Positions 4,328 through 64,000 of a stretch of 64,000 nt of DNA are shown here, in pieces. The notes under the pieces are model-generated. The model did not search any database. It was not told where the DNA came from and saw nothing but the letters and a program-made list of their open reading frames with translations. This stretch comes from a virus. The translations under genes were made by a program, and so were the position numbers. Position 1 is the first letter of the stretch; the number at the start of each line of letters is the position of its first letter. The stretch lies in IMG/VR virus record IMGVR_UViG_3300036399_001951, positions 1-64,000 of that record. The stretch is one strand, 5' to 3'.

Positions 4328-4333
4328 CCATTG

Positions 4334-4417
4334 TACTCGAAGAGAGACTCGAACTCTCACAGCCGTCTGGCCAACAGATCTTAAGTCTGTCGTGTCTACC
4401 GATTCCACCATCCGAGC
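4334..4417 (-). tRNA. tRNA-Leu (anticodon TAA), class II, CCA not encoded
   Basis: GCTCGGA TGGTGGAATCGGTAGACAC G ACAGA CTTAAGA TCTGT, long variable arm, GAGAG TTCGAGT CTCTC TTCGAGT A. Confidence 0.95.
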
Positions 4418-8362: not shown

Positions 8363-8390
8363 ATTATACCTAGAATTATGAACTGGTTTT
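8363..8390 (-). promoter_or_regulatory. Putative early/middle promoter AAAAC-N17-TATAAT
   Basis: The motif recurs with 17-18 nt spacing upstream of several non-structural genes. Confidence 0.55.
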
Positions 8391-9132: not shown

Positions 9133-9602
9133 TTTTTTGGAATTATTACAAATGTGACCTCAACTTCTTCAGATCCAAATTTTCCATCACCGTAGAAAGT
9201 AACTTCAATATCATTTAGTTTGCTTCCAATCTGATCATTTACTACCTGTTTTCTAAATTTATCAAGTAGTATTTTACTGTCTGGCGGAAGAGTGGGTTTG
9301 TCACCTCCAACGTATTTAGAAATTGCTTTCTTTTTAACATCAATTAAGGAGTCAGATAATTTTAAATCTTTAGTGCTTATGATATTTGAAGTTAGCCATT
9401 TATCTAAATCGTCTTTAGATATTTCAAAGGTTGGATATTTTTTAGAACTAGTTCCATCTGGATATCTATGATCACCTTCTTCTCCATCTTCCATAAAAAT
9501 AAACTTATATTTATCTACTTTAGGAGCAGCAGCTGCATTTGGATCTCCGCCCATCATATCTTGCTCGTTAATAAAGGTAATAAATCTTTTTACGTGTTTC
9601 AT
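9129..9602 (-). CDS. Putative internal head protein
   Basis: Leader MKHVKRFITFINE; late-promoter motif at 9623-9630. Confidence 0.55.
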   Translation of the reverse strand: MKHVKRFITFINEQDMMGGDPNAAAAPKVDKYKFIFMEDGEEGDHRYPDGTSSKKYPTFEISKDDLDKWLTSNIISTKDLKLSDSLIDVKKKAISKYVGGDKPTLPPDSKILLDKFRKQVVNDQIGSKLNDIEVTFYGDGKFGSEEVEVTFVIIPKK

Positions 9603-11447: not shown

Positions 11448-11464
11448 ATTATCTTTTTATTTAC

Positions 11465-18015: not shown

Positions 18016-18045
18016 ATTTCTTTTTATGTTTTGATTATTTATGTA

Positions 18046-18180
18046 CTATTGATTTTTCCATTCTTTCCATGTGTCAAAGTCTTTTAGTTTTTCAAGGTCT
18101 TTCATAAACTCTGTATTGAGTCTCACTGCTATAGCCCACATTAAAAATGCTCCAAACAAAAATGCGATTACAATTTCCAT
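18046..18180 (-). CDS. Small membrane protein (44 aa)
   Basis: MEIVIAFLFGAFLMWAIAV hydrophobic helix. The longer ORF-track start runs into the tRNA-like RNA. Confidence 0.6.
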   Translation of the reverse strand: MEIVIAFLFGAFLMWAIAVRLNTEFMKDLEKLKDFDTWKEWKNQ

Positions 18181-18196
18181 AGTGTTTAATTTTTTG

Positions 18197-18320
18197 CAGT
18201 CAGGACAGGATTCGAACCTGCATGATAACTTATGAGCAGTCTTATCGGGTCTTTCGAGGTTACTCACGTTATCCTTACTATTAACCTTTATTCATGCGTC
18301 TACCATTCCGCCACCTGACT
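18197..18320 (-). ncRNA. tRNA-like RNA (124 nt): intact acceptor, D and T arms but no canonical anticodon arm
   Basis: AGTCAGG/CCTGACT acceptor, TGGCGGAATGGTAGACGC D arm, GCAGG-TTCGAAT-CCTGT T arm. The ~74-nt central region carries a long hairpin. Confidence 0.75.
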
Positions 18321-18324
18321 ATAA

Positions 18325-18420
18325 AAACACGCTCCTAAGCATTCTACTCCCAGCTCCGAGGAATTGTATCTAACTTAGCCCGTTACTCACCGCTGTACAG
18401 GTACTTAGGTTTACGTGTTT
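18325..18420 (-). ncRNA. Putative 96-nt structured ncRNA (unassigned)
   Basis: Nested helices AAACACG/CGTGTTT, CCTAAGTA/TGCTTAGG, CAGC/GCTG, TAAC/GTTA. Promoter-like motif at 18424-18452. Confidence 0.55.
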
Positions 18421-18462
18421 ATTATTTTACTTTAAAATACTAATTTTGTTTTAATAATTAAA

Positions 18463-18663
18463 CTATTTTTCAATAAATTTAGATTTTAAATCAATTAAAT
18501 TGACATAATTATTAATTCTACCTTGCAGTACCACTTTAATATATTCTTCCAAAGCATTCATATTATCTCTGGTTAATTTTGAATCTAATGCTTTAGTTTC
18601 ATATAGAAGATCTACTATGTTTTTTGCGTCCTCTTTAACTAGATTATTCAGTTCATCTGTCAT
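18463..18663 (-). CDS. Hypothetical protein
   Basis: 66-aa co-oriented ORF. Confidence 0.65.
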   Translation of the reverse strand: MTDELNNLVKEDAKNIVDLLYETKALDSKLTRDNMNALEEYIKVVLQGRINNYVNLIDLKSKFIEK

Positions 18664-18674
18664 GACTTTGATAT

Positions 18675-19346
18675 TTAAAAATTGGTTTGATTATTTTTTC
18701 TATATTTTTCATGGAACTCCATGATTTTATCCCGGGCCTCTTCGGCAGTATCTACTACTCTAAACAGATTAAAGTCATCTGAGGACATCTTGCGTGACTC
18801 GCAGACTGTATCTCGCAACCAATCCATTAAACCTGACCAATATTCGGTTCCAATTAAGATAATTGGAAATTTTGGAGTATGTCCAGTTTGAGCTAGAGTT
18901 AGGGTTTCAAATAATTCATCTAGGGTTCCAAGTCCACCTGGAAAAACTATGAATGCTTGAGAATATTTTAAGAACATTACCTTTCGAGTAAAAAAATATC
19001 GGCACGTTATTCCAGTGGTTACATATGAATTCATTTCTGCTTCAAATGGTAATTCTATTCCAACGCCAACTGAATTTGCCCCGGCTTCTTTTGCTCCATC
19101 ATTGACTGCCTCCATTATTCCAGGTCCGCCGCCGGTAATTACTGAAAAACCTTCAAGCGCAATGATCTTGCCAAACTTCTTTGCTTCATCATACCAATAA
19201 GTGTTCATCGGCGTTCTAGCAGATCCAAATACGCATACACTTGGTCCTAATTCAGCAAGGGTATCAAATCCTCTTACAAATTCAGATTGAATCCTCATTG
19301 CCTGCCATGCGTCTACTGCCTTGTTTTTATCCTTCCATTCTTGCAT
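18675..19346 (-). CDS. LOG family nucleotide phosphoribohydrolase (TIGR00730-like)
   Basis: VFGSAR, TGGGPGIMEA, FFTRKVMF and PGGLGTLDE. Confidence 0.92.
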   Translation of the reverse strand: MQEWKDKNKAVDAWQAMRIQSEFVRGFDTLAELGPSVCVFGSARTPMNTYWYDEAKKFGKIIALEGFSVITGGGPGIMEAVNDGAKEAGANSVGVGIELPFEAEMNSYVTTGITCRYFFTRKVMFLKYSQAFIVFPGGLGTLDELFETLTLAQTGHTPKFPIILIGTEYWSGLMDWLRDTVCESRKMSSDDFNLFRVVDTAEEARDKIMEFHEKYRKNNQTNF

Positions 19347-19746
19347 CTTTTATTCTATTTTTTAGTTCAGTACTTGAAAAATTATGGTCCCTTTTATTAT
19401 AAAAAATTTTAATTCCTCGATTAATACAAATTTCTTTTGCAGTGAAGTCCCGGTTCAGATAATCGCTCCCTATAATTCTAATGTCTAATTTAAATGAAGA
19501 AAATATTTCTTCAAGCTCAGACTCAGTTTGATATGGCACAACCTCATCTACGTATTTACAAGCGTCTAATTGAATATATCTTTCGACTAGAGATTGTATA
19601 GGTTTATTTTTATTAGGTCGATCTATAGTTGGATCAGTTTGAAGAGCAACTATTAAGTAATCACAGACTTCTTTTGCTTCTTGCAACATCTTCACGTGAC
19701 CTGCGTGAAATAAATCAAAGCAGGAGCAGGTTATACCTATAATCAT
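19327..19746 (-). CDS. Cytidylyltransferase (TagD/glycerol-3-phosphate CT-like)
   Basis: FDLFHAGH (HxGH), YVDEV and R...SSTELK. Confidence 0.9.
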   Translation of the reverse strand: MIIGITCSCFDLFHAGHVKMLQEAKEVCDYLIVALQTDPTIDRPNKNKPIQSLVERYIQLDACKYVDEVVPYQTESELEEIFSSFKLDIRIIGSDYLNRDFTAKEICINRGIKIFYNKRDHNFSSTELKNRIKDARMEG

Positions 19747-19889
19747 GCTAATTCTCTACTATATAAATTAACTAATAATATTCTAGCAAATTTAAAGTCC
19801 CTTGCTAGATTTAATTTAAGACCGTATGCGTGAGCAATTGCTTTTAAATGAGGATAGGCCTCAGATAGTGTCATTTTTCCTACTTCCAT
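19743..19889 (-). CDS. Small hypothetical protein (48 aa; not in the ORF track)
   Basis: MEVGKMTLSEAYPHLKAIAHAYGLKL...RELA*; fills the gap exactly with an ATGA overlap. Confidence 0.6.
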   Translation of the reverse strand: MEVGKMTLSEAYPHLKAIAHAYGLKLNLARDFKFARILLVNLYSRELA

Positions 19890-19892
19890 CTT

Positions 19893-20831
19893 TTAATTTA
19901 TTGAATTATTATCTAAGACATATTTAAGAAGAGCAAAATCCTTGGCCTTTGCTTCTATTTCAATATCAAACATATGACCGATCTCAGGAATAGTCTCATA
20001 TATGTAATCAGCATGTGAACGTGGAGAATTAGTGCTTGTATCCTCATTTACTTTACGACTACTACTGTAGTGAGCAAGTGGCCGAATACCATCGGGCCAA
20101 GTACTAGCAGCTAATTTAGCAGCATCATTAGTACTTAAATCATTAGTACAAAAAGTATGATGAAAGAAATCAAAGGTAATGGGAATGCCAATTACTTTAT
20201 GTAGACCTTCATATAAATCAAGGACACCAAACTGAGATGCTTTATCGTCATTCTCAATTACAAGTCGAGACTGCACCCAATCAGGCAAGCGTAGATAATT
20301 TTGACAAAAGCGTTTTAAGGTTATTGTCTTAGCTTCTTCGTCAGTTTGATCCTTTGTTTTAAATGAACCACCAACATGTATATTAAGACTGAATTTTTTA
20401 GTTCTAGGTAAACCCATCATATCCAATATTTTAGCATGTTGAGATAGATCTTTGATAGAATTTAGAACTACATGTTCCTTTAGAGAAGGTAACACATTAA
20501 ATTGACCTGGATGAAAGCCAACTCGCATACCATGAGTGAGTATAAAATCTCCAGTTTTAATAAGTTCAGCTTTAATAGGTTCAATATTAGGTAAGTCTTC
20601 GAATTCATATTCACTCATCCAAGGAAAGAGATCACTCGACATTCTAAATATCATAATGTCCTGATCAAGATTCCATTTAAGAATTCTCTGTAGATCTAGG
20701 ATATTAAGCATAGCAAGTTCACCCGCTAGAGAAAGACCTTTTTCTTGAAATGTTCTCTTAATCATACCACGATTAGTTGACACACCGTCGGGTTTAAGAG
20801 TAAGATTTATGCAACAATATCCTAGATTCAT
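19893..20831 (-). CDS. uvsE: UV DNA damage endonuclease
   Basis: LGYCCIN, FRMSS, HPGQF, NIHVGG, ENDD, FD..HH, H.DY and EAKAK. Confidence 0.95.
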   Translation of the reverse strand: MNLGYCCINLTLKPDGVSTNRGMIKRTFQEKGLSLAGELAMLNILDLQRILKWNLDQDIMIFRMSSDLFPWMSEYEFEDLPNIEPIKAELIKTGDFILTHGMRVGFHPGQFNVLPSLKEHVVLNSIKDLSQHAKILDMMGLPRTKKFSLNIHVGGSFKTKDQTDEEAKTITLKRFCQNYLRLPDWVQSRLVIENDDKASQFGVLDLYEGLHKVIGIPITFDFFHHTFCTNDLSTNDAAKLAASTWPDGIRPLAHYSSSRKVNEDTSTNSPRSHADYIYETIPEIGHMFDIEIEAKAKDFALLKYVLDNNSIN

Positions 20832-47943: not shown

Positions 47944-48621
47944 ATGCCTCTTAATTTTCCAATACCATCATCAATAGGAGAAATTTATATTGGCCCGAGC
48001 GGCAATAAGTGGCAATGGGACGGTAGTATATGGAAAATCATATCATCTACTATTGACGGGCCAACTGGACCAACTGGACCTATCGGTAATACTGGGCCAA
48101 CTGGGCCAACTGAAAAAAAGATAGATTCATTCTATGCATATGACATGGGTACCACTGTAACAGGATTTGTCTGGAACGGTGATACTATGACTGCAGGTTC
48201 AACCATCCAATGGATAAATCAAAGATGGAGAGCTCAAGAATTTAGTGGAACTGCGCCTGCAATACAAGGATGCATGGCTGGAACTACCGTACCTTCATAT
48301 TTTCCGCCTGGATCAAGTATTAAAATTATTATTGTATCATCAGCTGCAGCGGCAAACATTACAGGTGATATAAAACATTTTATAGGTTTAGCGAAACCAA
48401 CTGCTGGTGGTGCATTAGGAACAGACACAGAAACTGAGTGGCAATCTTATGTTTATACTGCAAATGGTAATACATTAACGTCAACTTCTCTTACTTTCTT
48501 AGGAACCGACGTTGATCCTGGAGATCCAGTCGCCGTCCTAATGTATAGGAATTCAAATGATACTCAAGATACATCTACTGGATTATCTTTAATAGTATCG
48601 ATAAGTATAGAAATGGTATAA
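47944..48621 (+). CDS. Short collagen-containing virion appendage protein
   Basis: N-terminal NFP..S.G..Y..P.G..WQWDGS.WK module, short GPT tract, beta-rich head. Confidence 0.65.
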   Translation: MPLNFPIPSSIGEIYIGPSGNKWQWDGSIWKIISSTIDGPTGPTGPIGNTGPTGPTEKKIDSFYAYDMGTTVTGFVWNGDTMTAGSTIQWINQRWRAQEFSGTAPAIQGCMAGTTVPSYFPPGSSIKIIIVSSAAAANITGDIKHFIGLAKPTAGGALGTDTETEWQSYVYTANGNTLTSTSLTFLGTDVDPGDPVAVLMYRNSNDTQDTSTGLSLIVSISIEMV

Positions 48622-48635
48622 AATAAAGAATAAAA

Positions 48636-52408
<3,773 letters not shown>

Positions 52409-52409
<1 letters not shown>

Positions 52410-52996
52410 TGGCAGTAACGACAGTAACAACAGCAATGGCAGGAGCAATCAACTACACTAGGGTAGTCGATTCTTCATCGGACTGGGCATCAGTTCCGAA
52501 TAGTACTTATTTTTATGATAAATCAAATAAACTAGTCTATTTTAAAACCTCAGCTGCTCAGGTTTTACCTATATTTTCTGAATATAATTATGATTATGTT
52601 AGTGTTCCTATCAGTTCGGCTCAAATATTAAGCATGGGAACTTCTCCCATTTCTTTATTAGCCGCACCTGGGGTCGGGTTCTATTATGATATTCCTAAAG
52701 TAATTCTGGAATATACTCACATTTCAACCGCATATACATACCCAGGAGGAGCAAAAAGATTAGGGATCGGATATGCTCAGAGTGCAGTAATAAATGCTGA
52801 TTTATTGTCCGATACAAATAATAGAGTTTGCATTATTGAACCTACTAAACATCAAATTGAAGGTAGTAATACCATTCATAATACTATAGAATTAAATCGA
52901 GCACTTTCATTCAGTACTGATAATTTTTCAGACCCTGCCACTGGGAATGGAACTATACTTGCTAAGATATGGTATAAAATCAGGAGTTTCGGTTAA
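52409..52996 (+). CDS. Putative fibre-associated structural protein
   Basis: TAATG coupling to the collagen gene; beta-rich. Confidence 0.55.
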
Positions 52997-53711
52997 ACTC
53001 AGCTAGGAAGATCTCAGAATTATTTCCAACTGGCACGATTGAATATCCAATATTATTCAAGAATTGAAATAACTCAGATCTCAATTTAGACGCAGGTATC
53101 ATGTGCTCTCTAGTTTCTCTCCATTCGTCCCAGCTTTCAAATAAAATAGGAGGCCAATTATTTTTTTCTAGAGTCTTTAATGCTCCTTTAAGAACATGTA
53201 TTTCGTGACCCTCTACGTCAATCTTAATTAGGCCAATATTCTCTATATTTAGATCATCTAATCTCTTTAGAGGCAACTTGAGTGTACCTAATGATGACTC
53301 TTCTCTCTTTTCTCCTAGAAAAGTAAATCCATTTCCTCCGCCGTCTTTAGATCTAACATAATAAGTGGCTTCACCTTCATCAGATGATAATCCGAAACTG
53401 TAGGCTGTTATCTTATGATTTAAATCTTTTAAAAAAATATTTGCACACATACAGTTATAAACCTCCGGGTTACACTCAAAGGAATAAGTATGTTTTGCAT
53501 GAGGAGCAATCGTCCAGCTATAAGTACCAATATGAGCACCGATGTCTACAAAGTTAACTTCTGAATTTATAAAATTATCAATACACCATTGAATATGTCC
53601 CCATTCAGGTATGCCTGAACTGAACATCCAGGCTCCAACATTAGGGTCATTTATAAAAAAGGATTCAGGATCTAATTTAATGAATTGTTTTTTAGGATTT
53701 AGTATATACAT
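52980..53711 (-). CDS. FkbM family SAM-dependent methyltransferase
   Basis: FVDIGAHIG, SFE, and IKIDVEGHE..VLKGA..P.ILFE. Confidence 0.92.
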   Translation of the reverse strand: MYILNPKKQFIKLDPESFFINDPNVGAWMFSSGIPEWGHIQWCIDNFINSEVNFVDIGAHIGTYSWTIAPHAKHTYSFECNPEVYNCMCANIFLKDLNHKITAYSFGLSSDEGEATYYVRSKDGGGNGFTFLGEKREESSLGTLKLPLKRLDDLNIENIGLIKIDVEGHEIHVLKGALKTLEKNNWPPILFESWDEWRETREHMIPASKLRSELFQFLNNIGYSIVPVGNNSEIFLAEFNRNS

Positions 53712-53716
53712 GATTT

Positions 53717-55687
53717 TTATTTTAGATAGAACATTTTATTATAGAAATAGGTAAGAGGGACCCTGATTGATTTTGAGGTACTGTCCCAAGTTGAATAATT
53801 AAATTCTAATTCTTCGTCATTAACTGAATTTATAGAGAGACAATATTCGATCGGTTCTCCTTCAAAAGAGAATGGAGAACTGTGCATCACAGGCTTACCG
53901 TTCTTTTCCATAATTATTAAATAATGAAGATATGTCCTTGGGTTTTCATAGTTAACTGAATGAACTACTATGTATAATAGACCACCTATCTCAATTGCAG
54001 AAGTGGATCCTCTAAAAAAAGAAAATAAGACTGGGACTTCAAATTTTCTAGCCTCACTCATACTTGGATATGAATAGACTGTAACTGGATTCCAACCATA
54101 AATAATTTCATTCTCATTCAAAAATACCCAGTTCTTTTCGCAGCCTGATCCTGTTGGACTATCGAATACCTGATCAACTATAATCTTTTTATTCTCAACA
54201 TCATATATTCCAGAACATATTCTATTTCCTTGATTAGGACTTATAAATTGGGAAGTTGCCAGGAATTTAATCGATCCATCCTCTGCCTTAAATAATCTAA
54301 GATCTTCAATGCCTTCTACTCTTGCACCCTCATGTATTGGAACTCTATATTCTTCTTGCATGATCCATTTTCCATTAAGCAAATTTAGTGTTTTAACGGG
54401 TTCTTTTGCAAGTTCCTCCCAACCCATATGTCTTCCGTCAGATTGATAGTGATATGCTCCATTAGATCGATCTATTTTATAATTAACTAGTCTAATATTA
54501 TGCAAATCTGAATCTATTTTACAATGAGATGAGTTTATAAAACCATCTGGAATTATAGAAGGATCTATTTCTATCGATTCTATCTTAAATCCATCTTTAG
54601 TGAGAGTATTTGCGTAAAACTTTAAATTATTAAATACTGATCCTATTGTATGATTAGCTGGATTATCTGATAGATATGAAATTGATATTCTAGAGCCTAA
54701 ATTTCTAGTAGATGGATTTAAATAATAATATAGGATCGACATCTCATATTCAAATAATTTATTCTCATATAAAGAATAATTCACAAAGAGCCTGTCCTCT
54801 TTAGGATAAGTTATATCTTTTCCAAGATTGTAGAATTTAAGTGCGTCTTGATGTTTTCCAATCTCTCTGAATTTTTTACACATCTCATATAGAGCCTCGG
54901 CTCTTCCTGAATGATATTCATGTCCTTTAATTGCCCATTCTGCGGCTTCATCCAATTTATTTAATTGAGAATAGCAGTTACTAATCATATAGTAACTGTA
55001 CCATACTTCTTCATACCATCCTCCCATTAAAACTCTTCTCTTATAAAATTCGATTGCCTTTTCAAAATTCTGAGTATCTTTATGGGATTGAGCTAAGTAG
55101 AATACATATCTTTCATTATTAGGCTCGTCAATTAATCCCTGCGTTAATAATTTGATGTCACGTTCAAACTTATCTTCCTTGCTTCCACCATCTCCAATAT
55201 CATTAATTAATATCGATTCTAAGAGTTTTCCTCCTACATTACAATTATCCGCAGCTAAATATTCATGAGTAACTCCAACTGATTTCCATCTATATTTAGA
55301 ATTCATTACGCGAATATTAGTGTACTTAATTCCAGGATTTTGTTGAAACACCTCGTAATGAGAATAATTGGTATCTAATTCAGATTTATTAAATCCCTCA
55401 TTAATTAGGACCATATCTGCGTCTATAGTTAAGATCCAATTGCACGAAGATTCTCTAGCTAAATCAAGAGCCTCAGTTCGATTATGGCCGAAGTTCTTCC
55501 ATTCTCGATCGATCACTCTTCCCTTTATTCCGCGATCATTAAAAAATTTAATTATTATTTCTTGGGTTCCATCGGTCGATCCAGTATCTACTATACAATA
55601 TTCATCAATTATTCCCACTGTACTAGCCAAGCATCGCTCAATGACTCTGCTTTCGTTTTTAACGATCATACACAAAACTATTCCCAT
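53717..55687 (-). CDS. GT2 glycosyltransferase + TPR + C-terminal GH130-like beta-propeller
   Basis: LCMIVKNE, IVDTGSTDGT, FGHNR, IDAD, HE. TPR helices (YLAQS, AIEFYKRR). GIEDLRLF, EKNW, RGST and IEYC. Confidence 0.85.
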   Translation of the reverse strand: MGIVLCMIVKNESRVIERCLASTVGIIDEYCIVDTGSTDGTQEIIIKFFNDRGIKGRVIDREWKNFGHNRTEALDLARESSCNWILTIDADMVLINEGFNKSELDTNYSHYEVFQQNPGIKYTNIRVMNSKYRWKSVGVTHEYLAADNCNVGGKLLESILINDIGDGGSKEDKFERDIKLLTQGLIDEPNNERYVFYLAQSHKDTQNFEKAIEFYKRRVLMGGWYEEVWYSYYMISNCYSQLNKLDEAAEWAIKGHEYHSGRAEALYEMCKKFREIGKHQDALKFYNLGKDITYPKEDRLFVNYSLYENKLFEYEMSILYYYLNPSTRNLGSRISISYLSDNPANHTIGSVFNNLKFYANTLTKDGFKIESIEIDPSIIPDGFINSSHCKIDSDLHNIRLVNYKIDRSNGAYHYQSDGRHMGWEELAKEPVKTLNLLNGKWIMQEEYRVPIHEGARVEGIEDLRLFKAEDGSIKFLATSQFISPNQGNRICSGIYDVENKKIIVDQVFDSPTGSGCEKNWVFLNENEIIYGWNPVTVYSYPSMSEARKFEVPVLFSFFRGSTSAIEIGGLLYIVVHSVNYENPRTYLHYLIIMEKNGKPVMHSSPFSFEGEPIEYCLSINSVNDEELEFNYSTWDSTSKSIRVPLTYFYNKMFYLK

Positions 55688-55705
55688 ACTTATTCCTGTT
55701 TAATT

Positions 55706-55733
55706 ATTATATAAGAATTATCAAAATAGTTTT
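55706..55733 (-). promoter_or_regulatory. Putative early/middle promoter of the GT-FkbM operon
   Basis: AAAAC-N17-TATAAT. Confidence 0.5.
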
Positions 55734-56280
55734 AATCAAAATTAATATCTAGATCAAAATCAAAGTATGCGAATTTAGCAGTAAAAGTACCAAAGTTTGG
55801 AGTATTTGAACTATATGAAAGTTTTAGAGAATCTTGAGATTTAAGAATTGGTTTATTGAATACCACATTAGATACTAAATATCCTTCGTTATTTAACATG
55901 CTTAATGTCATGGGTGAAAGCACTTGATTTTTATTTTCAAAATCTAAGTAATTAAGAGCATTGTCCAAAAAGATCCAATAATTTAGATAAGCATCTGCCA
56001 TTTTAAAGGTTAGAGTAAATTCCCTAGTGAATAGATCTGGGATTGGAGTCGAATTTTTATACTCCTGTCTTTTACCTAATAATCGGGTTTGGGTAACAGG
56101 CTGCATTGACCACCCTGAGAAATCTATTCCCTGTACAGTAGAAGACATAAAATCCTCTATTGTATCATAGGGCAAGATTAGACTTTGATAGTATTTCTTA
56201 TATTTTTCCTTAACCTTTTCTGCAAAAAAATCAGGTGGAAATAGAAAAACAAATCCGTTATTTCTAGCGTTTAAAATCAT
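55732..56280 (-). CDS. Tail tube-fold protein (T4 gp3/gp19-like)
   Basis: FTLTF....LNY, TLSMLN, V.F, L.LSY and TFTAKF.Y pattern of tube/terminator proteins. Confidence 0.55.
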
Positions 56281-56285
56281 TTCTT

Positions 56286-56567
56286 TTATTTTTTATTTTT
56301 CTTAGCCTTTCTAGCTTTAGCTGCTAGATCCTTATCCGCTCCTCCCCAGGTACCAGAAGATTTAGTTGCAAAAGAATTAACTCTAGCCATTGCCCATTGA
56401 TGTTGACCTACTCCAGGACGATGTCCTGTTTTCCATGCAGCAAGTCCTCTATTGTAAACCTGTTTCAAGATTCCCTTTGGAATCCCAGTTTTTTCAGATT
56501 TATTTTTTAAAGCAGTATCTGAATTTGAAGATTCTACTAAGTATTCTAAAAATGTAAAGATTTTCAT
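56286..56567 (-). CDS. Small basic viral protein (DUF5824-like); putative internal head protein
   Basis: LK.VY.RG.AAW.TGHRPG...QWA.ARV.SF motif; leader [12 protein letters not shown]. Confidence 0.6.
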
Positions 56568-57241
56568 TTTTTATTTAATTGTTTTTTTACTTCCCTTCTA
56601 ACGCTCTCCATCTTTTTAGCGTATGCTGGATTATCGTTTCGATTAAATACTATCTGTTGGTTTAGGCTTCCGGTAATCTTACGCATATCTCCTCCTCTAG
56701 TTCTAATTAACCATTTTGCAAGTTCTTTTACCCCAAGTTTTTTAAATTTTCCATTAGCATCTGGTGCATCTGAATCATGCCAGTCTGGAGAGTTTTTAGT
56801 TTTTCTTTTTTCATCGACTTTTCCTTCGTTCTTACTTTGCCAATTTGCTGAAACTGAATCTTCTTCAATAGGTCCTCCTGCCGCCCAAGTATAGCACGTA
56901 CGAGCAGAGTGACATTTAAAGTGATGCATCCAACAATAACCAAGTTTTCCATCCGGATCTGAAACCTCCCCTGGCATACAATCTTTCATTCTTGGTGAAA
57001 TATCAAAAGCTACACAATTTCCACAATTAGATTGCTTTGCAACCTCAGGTTCAGTATTCCATTTTTTAGCATACTCGTCCCAATATTTTTCGTCATTGAG
57101 GTTTAGTGGTCCATATTTAATATAGTCTGCCTCTATTGCTTCGTTACGATTTTGAGTATTTACCTTTAGATCTTGAGTAGCTAACGGACAAGAGTTCGTA
57201 CCTTGTTCAAGGATTAAATATTCATTAAAATTTAATATCAT
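56564..57241 (-). CDS. Cys-rich putative internal head protein
   Basis: Leader MILNFNEYLILE; CGNC...GYC...C...CYTW. Confidence 0.6.
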   Translation of the reverse strand: MILNFNEYLILEQGTNSCPLATQDLKVNTQNRNEAIEADYIKYGPLNLNDEKYWDEYAKKWNTEPEVAKQSNCGNCVAFDISPRMKDCMPGEVSDPDGKLGYCWMHHFKCHSARTCYTWAAGGPIEEDSVSANWQSKNEGKVDEKRKTKNSPDWHDSDAPDANGKFKKLGVKELAKWLIRTRGGDMRKITGSLNQQIVFNRNDNPAYAKKMESVRREVKKQLNKK

Positions 57242-57798
57242 TTTCCAAACATTTTTTCAAAATTCTTAGTGTGTTTACTCTTTTGAGTTCCCCATCGTTT
57301 ACCTGTTTTTTGATTATAATCAGCTTTCCATTCTCCTTTGGGATCACTTGTGTATGCTGTTGGGTCATCATCATCTTTGTTAGCATGTTTCTTAATCTCG
57401 TTTTTCATTGCTTTAGCATCTTTAGTTAAATATACCGGATTAATCTTTTTTTTTTCAGTTACATATTGAGAATAACTAAGCACCTCGGCCTTTTCATTTA
57501 TTTTATTAGATTCCTCCCTAATAATTAATTCACCTAATACTTCCAATCTACCAACTTCCCTCTGAAATTCTATCTGAGTCATAGAAGTAGATATTTTTTT
57601 ATAAGTTTCATTAAATTCCTTTTTTGCCCCGGCTAAATCAAATTTTCCAGCGGCTGCTTTTTTATAGTAAGGAAGTTTAACTTTAAAATGGTGCCAAGTT
57701 AAAAGGGCAAGTCCTCCCTTTTCCTTTGCATTATTTACAATCTTTTCAGCACCGGCCTCTCTGGTATCTGCAAATGATTTAAATTCATTGTTTTCCAT
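57238..57798 (-). CDS. Hypothetical basic protein
   Basis: Internal VLSYSQYVTE motif; K.SKHTK.F..MFG C-terminus. Confidence 0.65.
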   Translation of the reverse strand: MENNEFKSFADTREAGAEKIVNNAKEKGGLALLTWHHFKVKLPYYKKAAAGKFDLAGAKKEFNETYKKISTSMTQIEFQREVGRLEVLGELIIREESNKINEKAEVLSYSQYVTEKKKINPVYLTKDAKAMKNEIKKHANKDDDDPTAYTSDPKGEWKADYNQKTGKRWGTQKSKHTKNFEKMFGK

Positions 57799-58051
57799 TT
57801 TCTTTTATTATTTTTAGGGTCAAATCTCCAGTTCCTTTAATTAACCGATGCCAAACCCCTGATTTAATTTCAATTTCATTAATTATTACCTCAGGCAATT
57901 GATCTTCAATTTGTATCATCCAATCAGTTTCTTTAATTGAGCTTATAATTCTATCTTCTGCATCTCGATGCCAAGTTAGGTCATCTGAATCAGAATCTTC
58001 ATCAAACTCTCGTATAACATAATTATCTATTTCAGTATCAAAATAAATCAT
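57785..58051 (-). CDS. Small cupin-like protein
   Basis: WHRD.EDR and I..GVWHRLIKG.GDL motifs. Confidence 0.6.
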   Translation of the reverse strand: MIYFDTEIDNYVIREFDEDSDSDDLTWHRDAEDRIISSIKETDWMIQIEDQLPEVIINEIEIKSGVWHRLIKGTGDLTLKIIKENGKQ

Positions 58052-58593
58052 TTTTTAATGTTTAGATTTTTAACTATTGATTTTATTTTAGGATCGCTAT
58101 TTTGTATTAATCTCTTTGCAACATTAACTGCCTCTCTTGCAGCTTTAATTCCAACTTCTTTATTTTCATAATTGAATATTACATTATATTCTCCTTTTTT
58201 TCTAGTTTCTCTAGTTCTTCCAAATCCAGTATCATCCCCGGCAAGAGTTTGTAATTCTAAAGCAATGTGCTCAATTATATGTCCCAACCAAGTTCCCCTC
58301 TTAACTCTTGAGAAAAATCCTCCCTTTCTTCCAATTGAACATCTATGATCATCCATCGATGGCAAATATTTCTTAAGGTTATCATAGAAATTAGGGATTT
58401 TATTCGATGGAAATTTTTCCCATTCTCCTAAATCTAAAATCATATGAATTAATTTATCTTTAGAATGATGCCATTTATTTTTACCTTCAATTGTTTTTAT
58501 AGACGTTATTTTTAAATCGCTGATGTTTGGTAAATTGACCTTAGTTTCAGATCTATTCGATTCAAATAAACTATATGCTATTAAATATTTCAT
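58048..58593 (-). CDS. Stand-alone cyanophycin synthetase N-terminal domain (putative cyanophycin endopeptidase)
   Basis: LDL...PSNKIPNFY..L...LPS...HRCS.G..GGF..RV..GTWLGHIIEHIALELQTLAG..TGFGRTRET. Start at 58593 by TAATG coupling. Confidence 0.85.
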   Translation of the reverse strand: MKYLIAYSLFESNRSETKVNLPNISDLKITSIKTIEGKNKWHHSKDKLIHMILDLGEWEKFPSNKIPNFYDNLKKYLPSMDDHRCSIGRKGGFFSRVKRGTWLGHIIEHIALELQTLAGDDTGFGRTRETRKKGEYNVIFNYENKEVGIKAAREAVNVAKRLIQNSDPKIKSIVKNLNIKK

Positions 58594-59171
58594 TACCAAT
58601 ATCCCGGATAAGTTTTTCCTCCCCAAAGATGAGCATATCTATTAATTCTACAGGCCCAATAGCCAGCCATCGTCCGATCCTTTTTTTCAGCACATCGATG
58701 TCGAGCTGCAAAACTTTTTCTAGCCTTTGGATTACTTACCTTTGCGCTTAATCCAGGGTCTCCAAACTGTATCTTTTTAATATTTCCAGTAGAAGGATTC
58801 TTAACGTATACTACGTATTTTTTAGATCCCCCACGCATAGGTCTTCCTAATTCAACTTCCCTGCCTTGATATTTGGCTTCTTCAATTGAAAAATCCTCTA
58901 GTGGCATATCTAACGCAACTTCAACTCCTTGATATATGCCAGTTTTACCAAGATCTGTGGTCTCAAATAAATAACCATCGAGCCTTCCTAATTCAAGAGA
59001 TCTCATTTCAAAAAGCATTCTGGCCTCTACTAATAGTTTAATATGAGCAGAGCTGCCCGGCCTATATACGGATTCAGTAATCGACATTCCTTGATCAACG
59101 TGATATTGCAAAGAATCTGAGATTTTAGATTCTCCTAGGTATCTGCTAAAGCTTTTAATTCTAGTTATCAT
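58593..59171 (-). CDS. Conserved viral protein (DUF6321-like); putative internal head protein
   Basis: KK..VYVKNP.TGN.KK..FG...ARKSF.ARH.C...AGYWAC; leader MITRIKSFSRYLGE. Confidence 0.6.
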   Translation of the reverse strand: MITRIKSFSRYLGESKISDSLQYHVDQGMSITESVYRPGSSAHIKLLVEARMLFEMRSLELGRLDGYLFETTDLGKTGIYQGVEVALDMPLEDFSIEEAKYQGREVELGRPMRGGSKKYVVYVKNPSTGNIKKIQFGDPGLSAKVSNPKARKSFAARHRCAEKKDRTMAGYWACRINRYAHLWGGKTYPGYW

Positions 59172-60484
59172 TGTATTAATATTGTTTTATCATCTATCAC
59201 AGATCCTATTTTAAAAGATCCTCGATTAACTAAACAGTCTCTAAGTTCAGCTGAAATCATATTTTTTGGATCATTATCAATATAGCTCTTAGAAATAGTA
59301 TTATTGGTTCCGTGATATTTGCATTCAATCAATTTAGAATTTTTTATAAAATTAGATGCAATCACGTCGCACTCTTCTAATTTTGAATTCCTGATCTCAC
59401 ATGCATTAAATAGACAATTTTTAGCATCTGCCTCGACTGTACAATTATAGAACTCAATTCCTTCTATTACGACATTTTTATCTATCTTTGCTCCCTTTAC
59501 CTGAAGCATTTTTCTAGTGTTGTCCCAATTAATATCAGCAATGTGAACCCCTCCAAAAACAACTAAATCGAATATTTTTTCTCTAAAAACAGGATACGTA
59601 GATTCAATTAAAAATTCTTGAGATCTAAGATCGTGATATAGTTTAATGTTAGGATAATTTGACTTTAGGTTTAATGGATTTTTAGTACTATCTACTGCTC
59701 TTTTATATTCTTCAATTAATGAGTTTAATTTAGATCTTTCATTAATATCATAACTAAAGTTTTCAGATAAGGTATTGTATATTCGGTTTATGATAGAATT
59801 AATCGTCCCCTTTGCTTCAATTTTCCTTTTTTGATAATCTTTTCCGCCAATGTAGGTTATTTCAATTATACCTTCATTTATTTTATTAAACTGATGTCCA
59901 AAGAAATCCGACTCTGGAAAATTGAATTGGCTCGAATCTGCCTTTTCAATTATTGAATTTGAAATATACGAAGTATACGGATGCTTAGAATGAAAGTAGA
60001 AGTAATTACCCTGAGGTATTTTCTTTCTTTCAGTATCATCGGTGTTCCATGATTCTAAGATTTGATCTTCGTCCAGTCCAATTAAATACTTAAATTTATT
60101 TAATTTTGATATTCCAAATGGTAAATTTAGTTTATGTTCATTCATTGAGATGCCTACCGTGAGCTGACATCGATCATCAGTTTGACCAAAATGATCAATT
60201 ATATTCATACTTTGCAGCATTAATCTTATCGCGTCATGATATGGCAAAAGACCCGTTTCAAAAATAAAGGTCTTAGATGAATGAGAATATTTGTTGGAAA
60301 GCTTAAACACATCGGTGTTAGGTTTAAAAGATTCATCTACTCCTTTAAACCACTTTACTTTTTTGCCAGTATTGTTTGCAATCTTTGATGCCATGTCTCT
60401 TCTTCTGAGAGGAGACTTAAATTCAAACTTAAATGATAGGCTTGAATTTAAATAAAGGTCGCTTCGATCTAATCCAAATTCCAT
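59168..60484 (-). CDS. Degenerate amidoligase-like (COOH-NH2 ligase) protein with a C-terminal beta-helix
   Basis: FKFEF, FETG, T.DRC.LTVGIS and IEITYIGGKDY align with amidoligase_2 motifs, with substitutions. Confidence 0.5.
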   Translation of the reverse strand: MEFGLDRSDLYLNSSLSFKFEFKSPLRRRDMASKIANNTGKKVKWFKGVDESFKPNTDVFKLSNKYSHSSKTFIFETGLLPYHDAIRLMLQSMNIIDHFGQTDDRCQLTVGISMNEHKLNLPFGISKLNKFKYLIGLDEDQILESWNTDDTERKKIPQGNYFYFHSKHPYTSYISNSIIEKADSSQFNFPESDFFGHQFNKINEGIIEITYIGGKDYQKRKIEAKGTINSIINRIYNTLSENFSYDINERSKLNSLIEEYKRAVDSTKNPLNLKSNYPNIKLYHDLRSQEFLIESTYPVFREKIFDLVVFGGVHIADINWDNTRKMLQVKGAKIDKNVVIEGIEFYNCTVEADAKNCLFNACEIRNSKLEECDVIASNFIKNSKLIECKYHGTNNTISKSYIDNDPKNMISAELRDCLVNRGSFKIGSVIDDKTILIQ

Positions 60485-60505
60485 TTATTAGTCAATATCT
60501 TTAGA

Positions 60506-60596
60506 TTATTTATCTAAGATTAATTGTATTTGATAAACAGTATTAAAATCAGTATAAATAATTCGCGATCCAATTTAATAATTTCGGTATAAATAA
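60506..60596. promoter_or_regulatory. Divergent late promoters
   Basis: ATAAATAA on the minus strand (60506-60513). Two perfect TATAAATA on the plus strand (60553, 60588). Confidence 0.6.
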
Positions 60597-60616
60597 TATA
60601 AATTACATCTAATATA

Positions 60617-62296
60617 ATGCCAAGTCAATTTTCGCCATATAAGATACTAAGCTCGTTTAAGGCAACAGTGGAGGATATTACTCTAGATACAATTAATTAT
60701 CTAACTGCCAGATTTAATCAAAGCAAGGCTGTATTTACGGCAGCTTCTCCATTTGGACAAATTTTAATTGTAATAGAGAATCTAACTCAATTAATATTCT
60801 ATTATATAGAAGATTCTATAACTGAATTGAATATAAATGAGGCAACTCGATTGACATCAATATATTCATTAGCTTCGCTCGCCGGGCATAATCCAAGTAG
60901 AGCAACTTCAGCCATTGGAGAAATATCCCTATCATTAGAAACGGATGAAACCGATCTTCCGGCAGATTATGTAATTATTTCAAATCTAACCAGATTAACA
61001 AGCGAAAACAACGGATTAATATATTTATTAGATTTACCCCAAGATCAAATAAAATTTTCTCTTAGAGGAGAAGATAATGGTCTTAAATTACAAATAAGAC
61101 AAGGGATTATAGAATCTCAAACGTTCACAGGGTCTGGGAAGCCATTGACTAGCTTTTCAGTTGCCAGCCCTCAAAGTTATTTTATAGATAATTTTTATGT
61201 AAATGTATATGTTAATGATCAAAAATGGAAAAGATATGAATCGATGTTAGATATTCCATTAAGTGCCCCTGGATTTATTATTAAAACAGGTATAACATCT
61301 GGATTAGATTTATATTTTGGAAACGGATCTTACGGATTAATTCCTCCTCCTGGATCAAAGATAACTGTTGAATATATAGTAACAGAAGGACCTGGCGGAA
61401 ATATTAAGACTACCAATACTTCGTCAGTCAATTTTTCTTTTGATGATACTGGATTTACTATTACTGGAGAAGAAGTAGATCTAAATAAATTTATTAAAAT
61501 TAAAACTGAAAATCCTCCTTATTTTGGAACCAATCCTGAAAGCGCAGATTTAACTAGATTAATTGCTCCAAAAAACTCTAAAAGCTTTGCTTTAGTTAAT
61601 CCAGATCATTATGAAATTGTTCTTAGACGATTAGGACTTTTTTCTTTGATTTCAATATATTTAGATCCGGTTGATGATAGAATGTTAAATTTATTTTTAA
61701 TACCTGATATAACTAGATCATTCAATACTCCGCAATCCTATTTTGGCGCAGATTTAGATATATTTAGAATGAGTCAATTTCAAAAGTCTGAATTGTTGAA
61801 ATATCTTGAAAAATCAGGAAGTAAATTAGTTTCAACTGACATTAAAATAATTGATCCTGTAATAATTAAATATGTAATTAATCTTAGTATAATCGTATTC
61901 GATGATGTTCCCGTAGAATTAATTAAATCCGATATCTATTCTTCTTTAGGTTTATATTTCATTAATAATACTCGAAGAAATAGAATTCCAAAAAGTGATT
62001 TAATTAAAATAATCGAAGAAGTAAAAGGAGTTGACTCAGTTGCAGTTACAATTGTAGGGGAATTAAATGAGGCAGCTAAGTCTGCAAATCCGGGAGCTGC
62101 TTTAATTGGATTAGATGATTATAATGATATTATAATTACAGACGGTCAGCTTCCAATAATTAGAGGAGGATTTAGTGACCGATTTGGAAACCAATATGCT
62201 TCTGGAATAGGACCTGTTGATCCTACTGGTGTATTAAATCCGCTAGGAGCAGTTAATATTAGAATAACTGATATTGTACCAAGACAATTAAATTAA
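60617..62296 (+). CDS. Baseplate wedge protein (T4 gp6-like)
   Basis: ATR..SI.SLA...G.NP....SA, YFGNG..G..PP.G..I.VEY..T.G..GN, and ES....R..AP. Confidence 0.85.
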   Translation: MPSQFSPYKILSSFKATVEDITLDTINYLTARFNQSKAVFTAASPFGQILIVIENLTQLIFYYIEDSITELNINEATRLTSIYSLASLAGHNPSRATSAIGEISLSLETDETDLPADYVIISNLTRLTSENNGLIYLLDLPQDQIKFSLRGEDNGLKLQIRQGIIESQTFTGSGKPLTSFSVASPQSYFIDNFYVNVYVNDQKWKRYESMLDIPLSAPGFIIKTGITSGLDLYFGNGSYGLIPPPGSKITVEYIVTEGPGGNIKTTNTSSVNFSFDDTGFTITGEEVDLNKFIKIKTENPPYFGTNPESADLTRLIAPKNSKSFALVNPDHYEIVLRRLGLFSLISIYLDPVDDRMLNLFLIPDITRSFNTPQSYFGADLDIFRMSQFQKSELLKYLEKSGSKLVSTDIKIIDPVIIKYVINLSIIVFDDVPVELIKSDIYSSLGLYFINNTRRNRIPKSDLIKIIEEVKGVDSVAVTIVGELNEAAKSANPGAALIGLDDYNDIIITDGQLPIIRGGFSDRFGNQYASGIGPVDPTGVLNPLGAVNIRITDIVPRQLN

Positions 62297-62309
62297 ATAA
62301 ATTTGTACC

Positions 62310-62555
62310 ATGTTAAAAGATAGCATATATAGAGAAACTTTAAGTAGAAAGGATAGAAGAATAAATTTAGGATACGATTATAAAGATAATATAATGAAAA
62401 ATACTCTATCTTCTCAAATGTTTGGAATAAACGAAACATTAGATAGGTTCATTAAGTCGGCTAATGATTGTGTATATGAATGGATTGAAGCAGTTAAGAC
62501 CATTAAAGCATATGCGAATCCGGCAGTAGATAAGAACGACAATAAAATCAATTAA
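62310..62555 (+). CDS. Hypothetical protein
   Basis: 81 aa, coupled to the next gene. Confidence 0.65.
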   Translation: MLKDSIYRETLSRKDRRINLGYDYKDNIMKNTLSSQMFGINETLDRFIKSANDCVYEWIEAVKTIKAYANPAVDKNDNKIN

Positions 62556-63277
62556 TGGCAAACGGAAAAATAAGTAAGGATAACAGAAAAATCCTTAAAA
62601 ACGAAATAGAAAATCTATTAAGTAGCATCAGTTCTGACAATGAGGATATGGTTCTAGATAATGAATTATCTAATGAGATTAGATCGGAAAGCCAATACGA
62701 CTTTGATCAAATGAGCGATCAATTTACTCAAAAGGCAAGAGAAATAACAGATTCTCTTTTTAAGAATTTTGTAGATATTGGAATATTTGAAAAAAATGAC
62801 TATGCTCGACATAAGAAAGAATTAGACACTATTAATATTTCAAATTTATTCTTTCAATTAAAAACTCTTAAAATATCCATAATGAAGATTATGGAAGAAA
62901 TAGCAACTGGAAATGTTCAACCTAGATTATTGGAGGTGATGGGTCAATTGCAGGATAAGATGGCAAACATAACTAAAATGCAGGCTAACTACATTCTTTT
63001 CTTAGAGGATACTTATAAAAAATTAAACAATGATGCCCCTGCAAATCCAGATTCTGCCCGCGTAGAATCCAGCGATATTGAAGGAAAATACTTTATCTCG
63101 GTTGGAACTAAAAATGTAATACAAAATCTACCTGATTCAGATATTTCAGATGATGGAGATGCTAATTTAATAGATCCAAATAATAAATTAAATTTGCTTC
63201 GTAAATCAGATATAGTGATTAATGAAGAAGAGAATAAGTCAGGCGAAGATTTCATTGATATTACTGAAATAATTTAA
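62555..63277 (+). CDS. Putative terminase small subunit (gp16-like)
   Basis: PRLLEVMGQL resembles gp16 PR..EV..QL; directly upstream of TerL. Confidence 0.55.
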   Translation: MANGKISKDNRKILKNEIENLLSSISSDNEDMVLDNELSNEIRSESQYDFDQMSDQFTQKAREITDSLFKNFVDIGIFEKNDYARHKKELDTINISNLFFQLKTLKISIMKIMEEIATGNVQPRLLEVMGQLQDKMANITKMQANYILFLEDTYKKLNNDAPANPDSARVESSDIEGKYFISVGTKNVIQNLPDSDISDDGDANLIDPNNKLNLLRKSDIVINEEENKSGEDFIDITEII

Positions 63278-63280
63278 GAT

Positions 63281-64000
63281 ATGAAAGATATAATGTCCAA
63301 TAGTGGAGGATATTCCACAACTCGGGTATCTGCTATAGGCGGAGACTCTAAGGACAATAATTATATCTGGACAACTGAGAAGATAAATCAATTAATTGAT
63401 GACATCAATAGCGGGGTAAAGGACGTTCGAAAATTAGGAATGTCTCCATTTAAAGATAATGATATAAACTTAAGAAGAGAAAATTTACCATTTGAATATA
63501 CTCCAGAAGAAATCGAAGAGATGTCAAAGTGTAAATCTTCCTTAATCTATTTTGCGTTAAATTATTGCGTCATTCAAACCAACAACGGTAGAATGATAGT
63601 AAAGGACGCAGGAGGTCTTAGAGACTTTCAAAATCAGATTTTAAAAGCGTATAAAGATAACAATCTCAATATATTAATGGCAAGTCGTCAAACTGGTAAA
63701 ACAGTAACCTCTGCCATTTTTATTCTATGGTTTCTACTATTTCATCCCGATAAAACTGCTCTATGCGTAGCAGATAATTTTACAACCACTAAAGAATTAA
63801 TAGATAAATTTAAAATCAGTTTAGAAGGTCTTCCGTTCTTTATGAAGCCTGGGATTGATGTTGTTAATGCAAGTAATGTAAAATTCGATTCAAATAGTAG
63901 ATTAGTAGGACGAACAACAACTAAAAAATCAGGTATTGGTCTATCAGTTAACTTATTATATATAGATGAGTTTGCTCACATTAACGAAGCTAACTTAGAT
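63281..64000 (+). CDS. terL: Terminase large subunit (T4 gp17-like), partial; not in the ORF track
   Basis: Manual translation: LRDFQ, ASRQTGKT (Walker A), LLYIDEFAH (Walker B). Confidence 0.93.
   Translation, partial: MKDIMSNSGGYSTTRVSAIGGDSKDNNYIWTTEKINQLIDDINSGVKDVRKLGMSPFKDNDINLRRENLPFEYTPEEIEEMSKCKSSLIYFALNYCVIQTNNGRMIVKDAGGLRDFQNQILKAYKDNNLNILMASRQTGKTVTSAIFILWFLLFHPDKTALCVADNFTTTKELIDKFKISLEGLPFFMKPGIDVVNASNVKFDSNSRLVGRTTTKKSGIGLSVNLLYIDEFAHINEANLD

Follow-up and report, generated by a model that had tools for sequence, protein, structure and literature searches.

A large freshwater phage encodes a stand-alone cyanophycin synthetase N-domain with a complete hydrolase motif and a short N-terminal leader

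The gene described here lies on the minus strand of a 64,000-nucleotide (nt) stretch of virus DNA (positions 1 to 64,000 of the IMG/VR record IMGVR_UViG_3300036399_001951; the window) and encodes a 181-amino-acid (aa) protein composed of a short leader and the N-domain of the cyanophycin synthetase CphA1. Cyanophycin is a major nitrogen store. The open reading frame (ORF) runs from 58593 to 58051 with its stop codon at 58050–58048, and the protein begins MKYLIAYSLFES. It is tightly embedded among its neighbours (Table 1): its ATG overlaps the TAA of the upstream ORF (58593–59171, minus strand) by one base, and its stop overlaps the start ATG of the downstream ORF (57785–58051, minus strand). 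An alternative TTG start at 58626, giving 192 aa, was rejected, and the 181-aa form was preferred, because orthologues of 175–187 aa begin at the methionine of an MK(Y/H)L sequence. The window belongs to a 136,739-base virus record with a CheckV completeness estimate of 54% and is phage DNA; a baseplate wedge gene (phrog_219, E 4.9e-29) lies 124 bases away and faces the eight-gene run that holds the N-domain gene. A sequence-only reading of the window had taken the protein for a leader of about 26 aa joined to nothing more than a CphA1 N-domain, and had proposed that the phage uses it on the nitrogen stores of its host.

Comparison with domain, sequence and structure collections revealed that the 181-aa protein is a CphA1 N-domain on its own, and this assignment is secure. 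Its sole Pfam match at E ≤ 1 was PF18921 (Cyanophycin_syn; E 1.9e-44, 150.8 bits against a cut-off of 27), with residues 51–164 covering positions 2–115 of the 115-position model, and a phmmer search of the PDB aligned residues 28–170 without gaps to residues 2–144 of CphA1 from Synechocystis sp. UTEX2470 (SuCphA1; 7lg5; E 1.9e-38). The whole-synthetase models TIGR02068 and NF010623 were matched over the first approximately 148–150 of their 862 and 871 positions, with 179 and 162 bits (cut-offs of 850 and 877); as the TIGR02068 match of 179 bits covers model positions 1–148 of 862 only, the protein is not a synthetase. A search for a PHROGs family for the protein returned none. AlphaFold2, run on a 47-row alignment, gave a model with a mean pLDDT of 91 and a pTM of 0.85, in which residues 1–20 were of low confidence (pLDDT 53–56, helix predicted at 2–12). 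Foldseek placed this model on 7txv, 7lg5 and 7wae with query-normalised TM-scores of 0.81–0.83 and root-mean-square deviations of 1.0–1.4 Å over 155–157 columns, at 44–45% identity to the SuCphA1 N-domain in the structural alignment. The close matches were the N-domains of SuCphA1 and Trichodesmium CphA1, the primer-dependent and CphA2 N-domains being more distant.

The SuCphA1 N-domain carries a hydrolase site, for which the available part of the original report (PMC9262961) describes C59, H79 and H83 as ligands of a metal, tentatively zinc, E82 as the general base (E82Q is dead), H57 and E87 as orienting H83, F67 as stacking on H83, and S60, R70, E90 and Y110 as side-chain contacts to the polymer; the domain splits (beta-Asp-Arg)8 into two tetramers and also cleaves (beta-Asp-Arg)12. 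In the phmmer alignment, C85, H105, E108, H109 and R126 of the phage protein fall on SuCphA1 C59, H79, E82, H83 and R100, so that the Cx19HxxEH metal and catalytic motif (C85-x19-H105-x-x-E108-H109) is complete and the correspondence of numbering given in the sequence-only reading is exact. The equivalents of H57 (H83), S60 (S86), F67 (F93), R70 (R96), E87 (E113) and Y110 (Y136) are likewise kept, and the E90 position is T116, the residue found there in 90% or more of the phage and cellular Bacteroidota sequences in the alignment. R126, initially counted as part of the site, has to be dropped from it: R100A was the sole SuCphA1 mutant without effect (PMC9262961, available part), and R126 is therefore no evidence for activity.

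The remaining parts of a synthetase are absent from the window, as had been noted from the sequence, and also from the record as a whole: a six-frame TIGR02068 search of all 136,739 bases (54% complete) recovered the N-domain only, with no ATP-grasp or Mur-ligase part. This search, which also catches weak partial matches, matched 14 of 14 control genomes, none of them above the cut-off, and found the N-domain only in all five of the related virus records searched (436 kb and 95% complete, 263 kb, 176 kb, 80 kb and 77 kb), each of which has an orthologue of the gene. By its baseplate protein, the phage is closest to uncultured huge phages (38%) and to Lak megaphages of Prevotella (33%), further relatives including phages of Flavobacterium, Tenacibaculum and Chryseobacterium; given these kin among Bacteroidota phages, a Bacteroidota host is likely. 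Among 50,697 GenBank phage records, neither tblastn of the protein nor megablast of window positions 50000–64000 gave a match.

Of the 31-letter words sampled from 57700–59300, at least 94% occurred in 15 lake-water metagenome runs from 2018–2024, four of which may themselves be the source. Seven contigs (151–264 nt, at least 99% identity) from four lake metatranscriptome runs mapped to 57754–60447, and two of them lie inside the N-domain gene (58194–58344 and 58370–58520), with DNA carry-over possible and strand and level not given; the contigs are therefore not taken to prove transcription.

The protein belongs to a family. A search for proteins of similar length yielded 158 matches among 219 candidates, with approximately 35 at 175–195 aa and 66–76% identity and a second set of homologues of approximately 306 aa at about 62%, and a search for longer proteins added 24 of 319–644 aa in which PF18921 was the sole Pfam domain, followed by full-length synthetases at 50–59%. 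Pfam analysis of ten longer N-domain fusion proteins revealed DUF2237 in one and weak GNAT and YunG-like matches elsewhere, none of these extra domains being linked to cyanophycin. Eighteen loci were found in IMG/VR, three of which (L005, L008 and L011) share the neighbouring genes of the window.

To place these proteins, we used a tree of 207 N-domains comprising 86 N-domain-only proteins (under 650 aa, with 58% identity or more to the window protein across no fewer than 125 residues), 96 loci from cellular genomes and 25 sequences drawn at random from 92 full-length metagenome proteins; P0065, P0068, P0071 and approximately 50 short sequences below 58% identity, which look like fragments of full-length genes, were omitted. 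All 86 N-domain-only proteins fell on one side of a single branch from the 121 full-length Bacteroidota CphA1 sequences (SH-aLRT 77), a result that selection by identity to the query favours and that was obtained with Bacteroidota sequences only, with no outgroup from another phylum and with a root placed unreliably on the long branch of L117. Within this side, two clades were resolved, one of 37 leader-bearing sequences (support 94) and one of 49 that was mixed (support 83). A single origin of the N-domain-only family is compatible with this topology but not proven by it.

The extended motif H-x-C-x19-HxxEH-xxx-E was complete in all 86 N-domain-only homologues, and the active-site and polymer-contact positions were invariant across the 86 phage-type and 119 cellular sequences. 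Codon comparison of nine genes gave dN/dS values of 0.08–0.25 between lineages with synonymous sites near saturation (saturation was reached in 6 of the 36 pairs, and values of 0.39 and 0.42 came from two close pairs). Against a distant relative, the 436-kb record G305, 24 of the 159 ORFs of the phage's own record (G000) found a match. The N-domain gene ranked first among these in conservation (75%); values of 22–37% were obtained for most others, including a sheath-like ORF and ribonucleotide reductase, and 39–68% for six other small ORFs. The family, which numbers no fewer than 86 protein clusters from several lineages of phages, is thus under purifying selection and conserved in several lineages of large freshwater phages. 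Pseudogene-like decay, named in the sequence-only reading as a sign against a working enzyme, was looked for among the orthologues and was not seen.

Nearest to the phage N-domain among cellular sequences are, as had been supposed, those of Bacteroidota. The best 80 loci of the cellular genome collection all came from this phylum (47–59% identity), all 80 keep Cx19HxxEH, and their frames measured 870–895 aa in 74 cases, the remainder being ended by the locus edge (three) or shorter (three; 269, 443 and 719 aa). In an even sample of 301 Bacteroidota genomes, the domain was present in 36 (12%), with 37 matches in frames of 872–974 aa; the expectation that many Bacteroidota encode CphA thus stands for its occurrence in the phylum and not for its frequency, carriers being a minority. 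The available parts of two published studies state that all 86 cphA1-bearing Bacteroidota genomes surveyed also have a cyanophycinase (PMC10206079, Table 2) and that a freshwater Flavobacterium expresses cphA (PMC9723704). One locus (L087, genome G002) is titled Methylophilus rhizosphaerae, a proteobacterium, and yet holds a CphA1 of Bacteroidota type, and it shares its phylum sample with a Flavobacterium genome; its title or bin is probably wrong, and L087 was dropped as a proteobacterial outgroup for this reason.

Homology to CphA1 begins at residue 27–28, and the 26 residues ahead of it are conserved in the approximately 180-aa forms as MK(Y/H)LxxYxLFES followed by LPxxS(D/E); the latter, between leader and domain, has no counterpart in cellular CphA1. 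The leader ends in L9-F10-E11, and [LIVF]-x-E is present in 41 of the 46 leader-bearing homologues. In phage T4, a ten-residue N-terminal capsid-targeting sequence is enough for packaging into the prohead, and the prohead protease gp21 cleaves after L/I-X-E (PMC9026906 and PMC3012670, available parts), a site that the end of the leader fits. In two related records, the N-domain gene stands in a row of genes that all start with MK(Y/H)LKx(F/Y)..FE, and in relatives the adjoining gene has 11 of 11 leader residues in common with the N-domain gene while the two proteins are unrelated past about 25–47 residues. By these comparisons, the leader is a separate module added to the CphA1 N-domain.

A fixed leader pattern (two aromatics, then hydrophobic-x-E, within the first 28 residues) matched 22 of the 159 ORFs of G000 compared with 30 of 1,248 internal windows, although it was defined after the N-termini had been inspected and one of the 22 matches resembles chance. 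The identical pattern, applied to the first 400 kb of G305, matched 40 of 444 N-termini compared with 126 of 3,604 internal windows (odds ratio 2.7, Fisher p 7.6e-7). The residue after hydrophobic-x-E is usually S, Q, G, A or D. Leader-bearing proteins of recognisable family in G000 include a Nudix hydrolase, an AAA ATPase, an HNH-like protein, a tape-measure-like protein and a GDSL hydrolase, and a lysozyme/peptidase protein has a looser leader outside the fixed-pattern count; Pfam analysis of ten leader-bearing proteins named only the GDSL hydrolase. The approximately 22 ORFs may together encode a large protein cargo directed to the capsid. Of the capsid-targeting leader proposed in the sequence-only reading, the distinct module on unrelated genes, the enrichment at N-termini and the L-F-E end have been found; targeting itself is suggested by analogy with T4.

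In a second lineage, the N-domain has no N-terminal leader and is directly followed by (N/K)LQE(S/N)IRRILREE or a close variant (28 of the 40 forms by the strict pattern, visible variants in the other 12), and the same type of motif starts neighbouring genes and separates the modules of longer fusion proteins. Nearly all the small genes there begin with M(N/K)LQE(S/N)IRRILREE (L013:6001–6894, L014:6010–6927 and their neighbours; P0121–P0144), and the modules divided by the motif within longer proteins are N-domain, GNAT-like, DUF2237 and others. These long proteins resemble either gene fusions made at a shared joint or polyproteins that are processed at L-x-E. As the N-domain is flanked by an L-x-E junction in every lineage, the arrangement would fit capsid targeting and proteolytic release. 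The gp21-type protease family PF03420 was found in three of the five related records (two above the cut-off) and the T4-type capsid family PF07068 in four of the five, adjoining the PF03420 protease gene. One frame of G305 (L123:1–1914, minus strand; G305:C1 approximately 269474–271387) matches the T4 gp21 protease family weakly (22.5 bits) and goes on with ten or more tandem YSEY(I/L)AENLDKNI repeats and a His-rich acidic tail. It may be a fusion of protease and scaffold with many (I/L)-A-E sites, and approximately 2 kb from it is a T4-type capsid gene.

The genes around the N-domain gene recur with it. The phrog_7595-type upstream gene adjoins it in L005, L008 and L011, and the downstream 88-aa gene has homologues that come next in L005 and L008 and, with one extra ORF in between, in L011. 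Four genes of the eight-gene run bear the leader (56286–56567, 56564–57241, 58048–58593 and 58593–59171), and a glycosyltransferase-TPR gene and an FkbM methyltransferase gene come after the run. The small genes beside the N-domain gene (57238–57798, 57785–58051, 58593–59171 and 56286–56567) are 52–68% identical to their G305 copies, which are scattered across that genome, whereas the larger proteins shared by the two phages, long unassigned ORFs among them, reach only 22–37%; these small genes behave like mobile or strongly constrained cassettes.

Table 1. Position and basis of the N-domain gene, its parts, its neighbours and further leader-bearing ORFs (window coordinates unless stated otherwise).
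Feature	Position	Strand	Basis
Gene for the stand-alone CphA1 N-domain protein, 181 aa	58048..58593 (stop included)	-	ORF, PF18921 and same-length orthologues at 66–76% identity
Leader core, residues 1–11 (MKYLIAYSLFE), L-x-E end; proposed targeting/processing signal	58561..58593	-	Outside CphA1 homology
Linker, residues 12–26 (SNRSETKVNLPNISD), conserved LPxxS(D/E)	58516..58560	-	Alignment consensus
CphA1 N-domain proper, residues 27–170	58084..58515	-	Gapless 7lg5 alignment, AlphaFold2 model, Foldseek
Active-site segment, residues 83–113: H83-x-C85-S86...F93...R96...H105-x-x-E108-H109...E113	58255..58347	-	Alignment to 7lg5
Upstream gene, 192 aa, leader MITRIKSFSRYLGE, phrog_7595 (function not assigned), translationally coupled	58593..59171	-	ORFs, PHROGs, synteny
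Downstream coupled gene, 88 aa, no family	57785..58051	-	ORFs, synteny
Run of eight tightly packed genes including the N-domain gene	55732..60484	-	ORF map
Leader-bearing ORFs, window (examples)	8389-9132, 9129-9602, 56286-56567, 56564-57241, 58593-59171	-	Leader pattern
Leader-bearing ORFs, G000 beyond the window (examples)	79829-81781, 83338-84435, 84453-86027	+	Leader pattern
Leader-bearing ORFs, G000 beyond the window (examples)	93708-95930, 97480-98604, 99399-100439, 101408-102037, 103959-105659	-	Leader pattern
Leader-bearing ORFs, G000 beyond the window (examples)	106367-108151, 108254-109102, 109114-109695, 111385-111978	-	Leader pattern

Elsewhere, the window encodes a tRNA-Leu(TAA), both ribonucleotide reductase subunits, UDP-glucose dehydrogenase-like and LOG/lysine-decarboxylase-like genes and a UvdE UV endonuclease, together with GroES-like and GroEL-like ORFs called by eye from their N-termini (positions of the tRNA, chaperonin, ribonucleotide reductase and other cargo: 4333–4417, 5236–5535, 9663–12460, 13925–15550 and 17065–20831, all on the minus strand). 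The G+C content of 48001–52000 is 0.415, compared with approximately 0.31–0.33 elsewhere; the rise lies inside a 1,158-aa ORF (48933–52409, plus strand), probably a tail fibre. The 436-kb record G305 and the 263-kb record G306, which contain loci L004 and L006, are classed as proviruses by IMG/VR, which is unexpected at such size.

On the similarities to SuCphA1, we propose that the gene encodes a stand-alone zinc endo-cyanophycinase of the phage, probably packaged or made late, that would fragment the cyanophycin of the host, a reading in which we place evenly balanced confidence. Judging from the Synechocystis domain, the protein would bind a stretch of (beta-Asp-Arg)n and cut its poly-Asp backbone internally, giving short soluble segments. 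In a Bacteroidota host that stores cyanophycin, such cleavage would create more chain ends and a looser store, from which the exo-cyanophycinase and dipeptidases of the host could free Asp and Arg faster for the synthesis of phage protein and nucleotides, and infected cells would be unable to lock amino acids into cyanophycin. For delivery, the 11-residue leader would act like a T4 capsid-targeting sequence and bring the protein into the prohead, a T4-type prohead protease would remove it after E11, and the processed enzyme would be carried by the virion and pass into the next cell along with the DNA. This delivery step, built on the analogy with T4, we consider plausible at a little short of an even balance, and the enzymatic reading is independent of it.

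Several observations weigh against this proposal. The SuCphA1 N-domain is slow, taking hours to cleave, long, insoluble cyanophycin mostly survives in the presence of active N-domains, and the M-domain residues S603 and E607, which help to hold the polymer, are absent from the phage protein (SuCphA1 data from the available part of PMC9262961); a few packaged copies might therefore do little. Approximately 13 near-fixed phage-specific substitutions cluster in the first hairpin (among them P12K, Y14K, R19K and E30G in SuCphA1 numbering), and because this hairpin touches the polymer backbone at Y14, the specificity could have shifted. A cyanophycinase of the Peptidase_S51 family (PF03575) was found in none of the five phage records searched, this phage included, so that full breakdown of cyanophycin would need host enzymes, and only 12% of the sampled Bacteroidota genomes have cphA. 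On the side of delivery, neither the PF03420 protease nor the T4-type capsid was found in the approximately half-complete record of the window itself, the leader pattern was drawn up after inspection, as stated above, and L-x-E plus a small residue alone was not enriched at the N-termini of G000 (34 of 159 compared with 199 of 1,248); the enrichment of the leader therefore depends on the aromatic pair too.

The same substitutions raise the alternative that an active metallopeptidase on this fold has been retargeted from cyanophycin to another poly-amide, a host protein or a phage protein, which we regard as improbable. None of the 119 cellular sequences has the near-fixed hairpin changes beside the groove (K38, K40, K45, G56 and others), the polymer contacts of the M-domain (PMC9262961, available part) are missing, and 265 of the 301 sampled Bacteroidota genomes gave no match to the domain; however, the metal ligands, the His-positioning residues and the side-chain polymer contacts (equivalents of S60, R70 and Y110) are invariant in 86 of 86 homologues, as in cellular CphA1, and T116 at the E90 position is usual in cellular Bacteroidota sequences as well (at least 90%). 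The enzyme might instead cleave cyanophycin in order to manipulate the synthetase of the host, supplying primers or dysregulating CphA1, with no mobilisation of the existing store. Primer generation is the only role demonstrated for the site in the available part of PMC9262961, which also describes the site as working between protomers, less well. All 80 nearest cellular CphA1 sequences, however, have a Cx19HxxEH site of their own, beside which added primers look redundant, and a larger nitrogen sink would be hard to square with phage replication; the re-priming of host CphA that the sequence-only reading had also suggested is weakened accordingly, and we take this explanation to be quite improbable.

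A catalytic role could also be missing altogether, the domain serving as a cyanophycin-binding or CphA1-interfering module, whether as a decoy, a granule anchor or a dominant-negative partner in CphA1 oligomers. The N-domain of CphA1 also anchors the nascent chain (PMC9262961, available part), and the known domain hydrolyses at a low rate. Binding alone, though, would not explain why 86 of 86 homologues, from lineages with saturated synonymous divergence, have kept the three metal ligands, the general base and the second-shell residues unchanged, which makes such a module very improbable. Any truncated piece of a bacterial gene in a metagenome-assembled record might be suspected of being a dead relic of a cphA taken up from a bacterium, or host sequence wrongly assembled into a phage contig. 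Either can hardly be right here, where the reading frame runs uninterrupted and is coupled in translation to the adjoining genes, synteny is kept in independent contigs, dN/dS is 0.1–0.25, identity is 47–59% to the best cellular sequences compared with 66–76% to approximately 35 phage-type proteins of the same length, and at least 94% of the sampled words of the locus (57700–59300) recur in the 15 lake metagenome runs.

The zinc endo-cyanophycinase proposed here would differ from known systems in architecture, carrier and presumed purpose, the enzyme module itself being known. With the SuCphA1 N-domain (7lg5, 7txv), described in the available part of PMC9262961 as a 'cryptic third active site', it shares family, fold, motif, second shell and contacts; in contrast to it, the phage protein stands alone without the G and M domains, has a 26-residue leader and an altered first hairpin, and lacks the M-domain contacts, and whereas the CphA1 site makes primers for synthesis, the phage protein has nothing to prime. 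The CphA1 proteins of Bacteroidota (Flavobacteriales, Chitinophagales and Sphingobacteriales; 47–59% identity), with the same motif, T at the E90 position and W at SuCphA1 position 76, are three-domain synthetases of 870–895 aa, and none of the 37 matches in the 301 genomes stood in a frame shorter than 872 aa. The cyanophycinases CphB and CphE (Peptidase_S51) act on the same presumed substrate, the poly-Asp backbone, but they are serine exopeptidases that release beta-Asp-Arg dipeptides, whereas the phage protein is a predicted zinc endopeptidase of unrelated fold that would give oligomers. The T4 internal proteins and Alt (PMC9026906 and PMC3012670, available parts) resemble the phage leader in having a short, aromatic N-terminus ending in (L/I)-x-E on unrelated cargo in variable loci; T4 packages a restriction inhibitor and an ADP-ribosyltransferase, whereas the cargo here would be a metabolic hydrolase, and the likeness is one of leader pattern, with no homology to T4 claimed.

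A search of predicted viral structures (BFVD) at E ≤ 0.001 returned a single entry, UniProt A0A6J5PU94 from an uncultured Caudovirales phage (57% identity, TM-score 0.84), whose name was assigned automatically from the domain; it has 245 aa, a C-terminal extension and no N-terminal leader, and probably belongs to a third lineage with L016–L018 and L020 (245-aa form). No study of it was found, and a literature search that left subscription journals and supplements outside its reach found no phage cyanophycin enzyme and, for endo-cyanophycinase, only the 2022 CphA1 paper; the available part of PMC10206079 does not mention phages. The statement that no phage enzyme of this kind had been described thus agrees with the searchable literature, but a family of at least 86 clusters exists in sequence collections, one member of which has an automatically assigned name in UniProt and BFVD.

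The endo-cleaving activity on cyanophycin came to light only in 2022, hidden inside a synthetase (PMC9262961, available part), and a natural, separate N-domain would offer a minimal endo-cyanophycinase for enzymology and for preparing defined cyanophycin oligomers. Its conservation in phages points to a strategy that was not found in the searchable literature, an attack on the polymeric nitrogen reserve of the host. If the leader is a capsid-targeting signal, the cargo of uncultivated large phages may be readable from sequence alone. The approximately 20 leader-bearing proteins in the half-genome alone prompt a wider picture, which we think unlikely as a whole, in which large freshwater phages of Bacteroidota would load their heads with varied enzymes bearing T4-like tags, among them the first natural stand-alone endo-cyanophycinase, injected together with the DNA to open the cyanophycin granules of the host as soon as infection begins. 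If true, a head-loaded endo-cyanophycinase would represent a new class of phage 'nitrogen-raiding' gene directed against a storage polymer.

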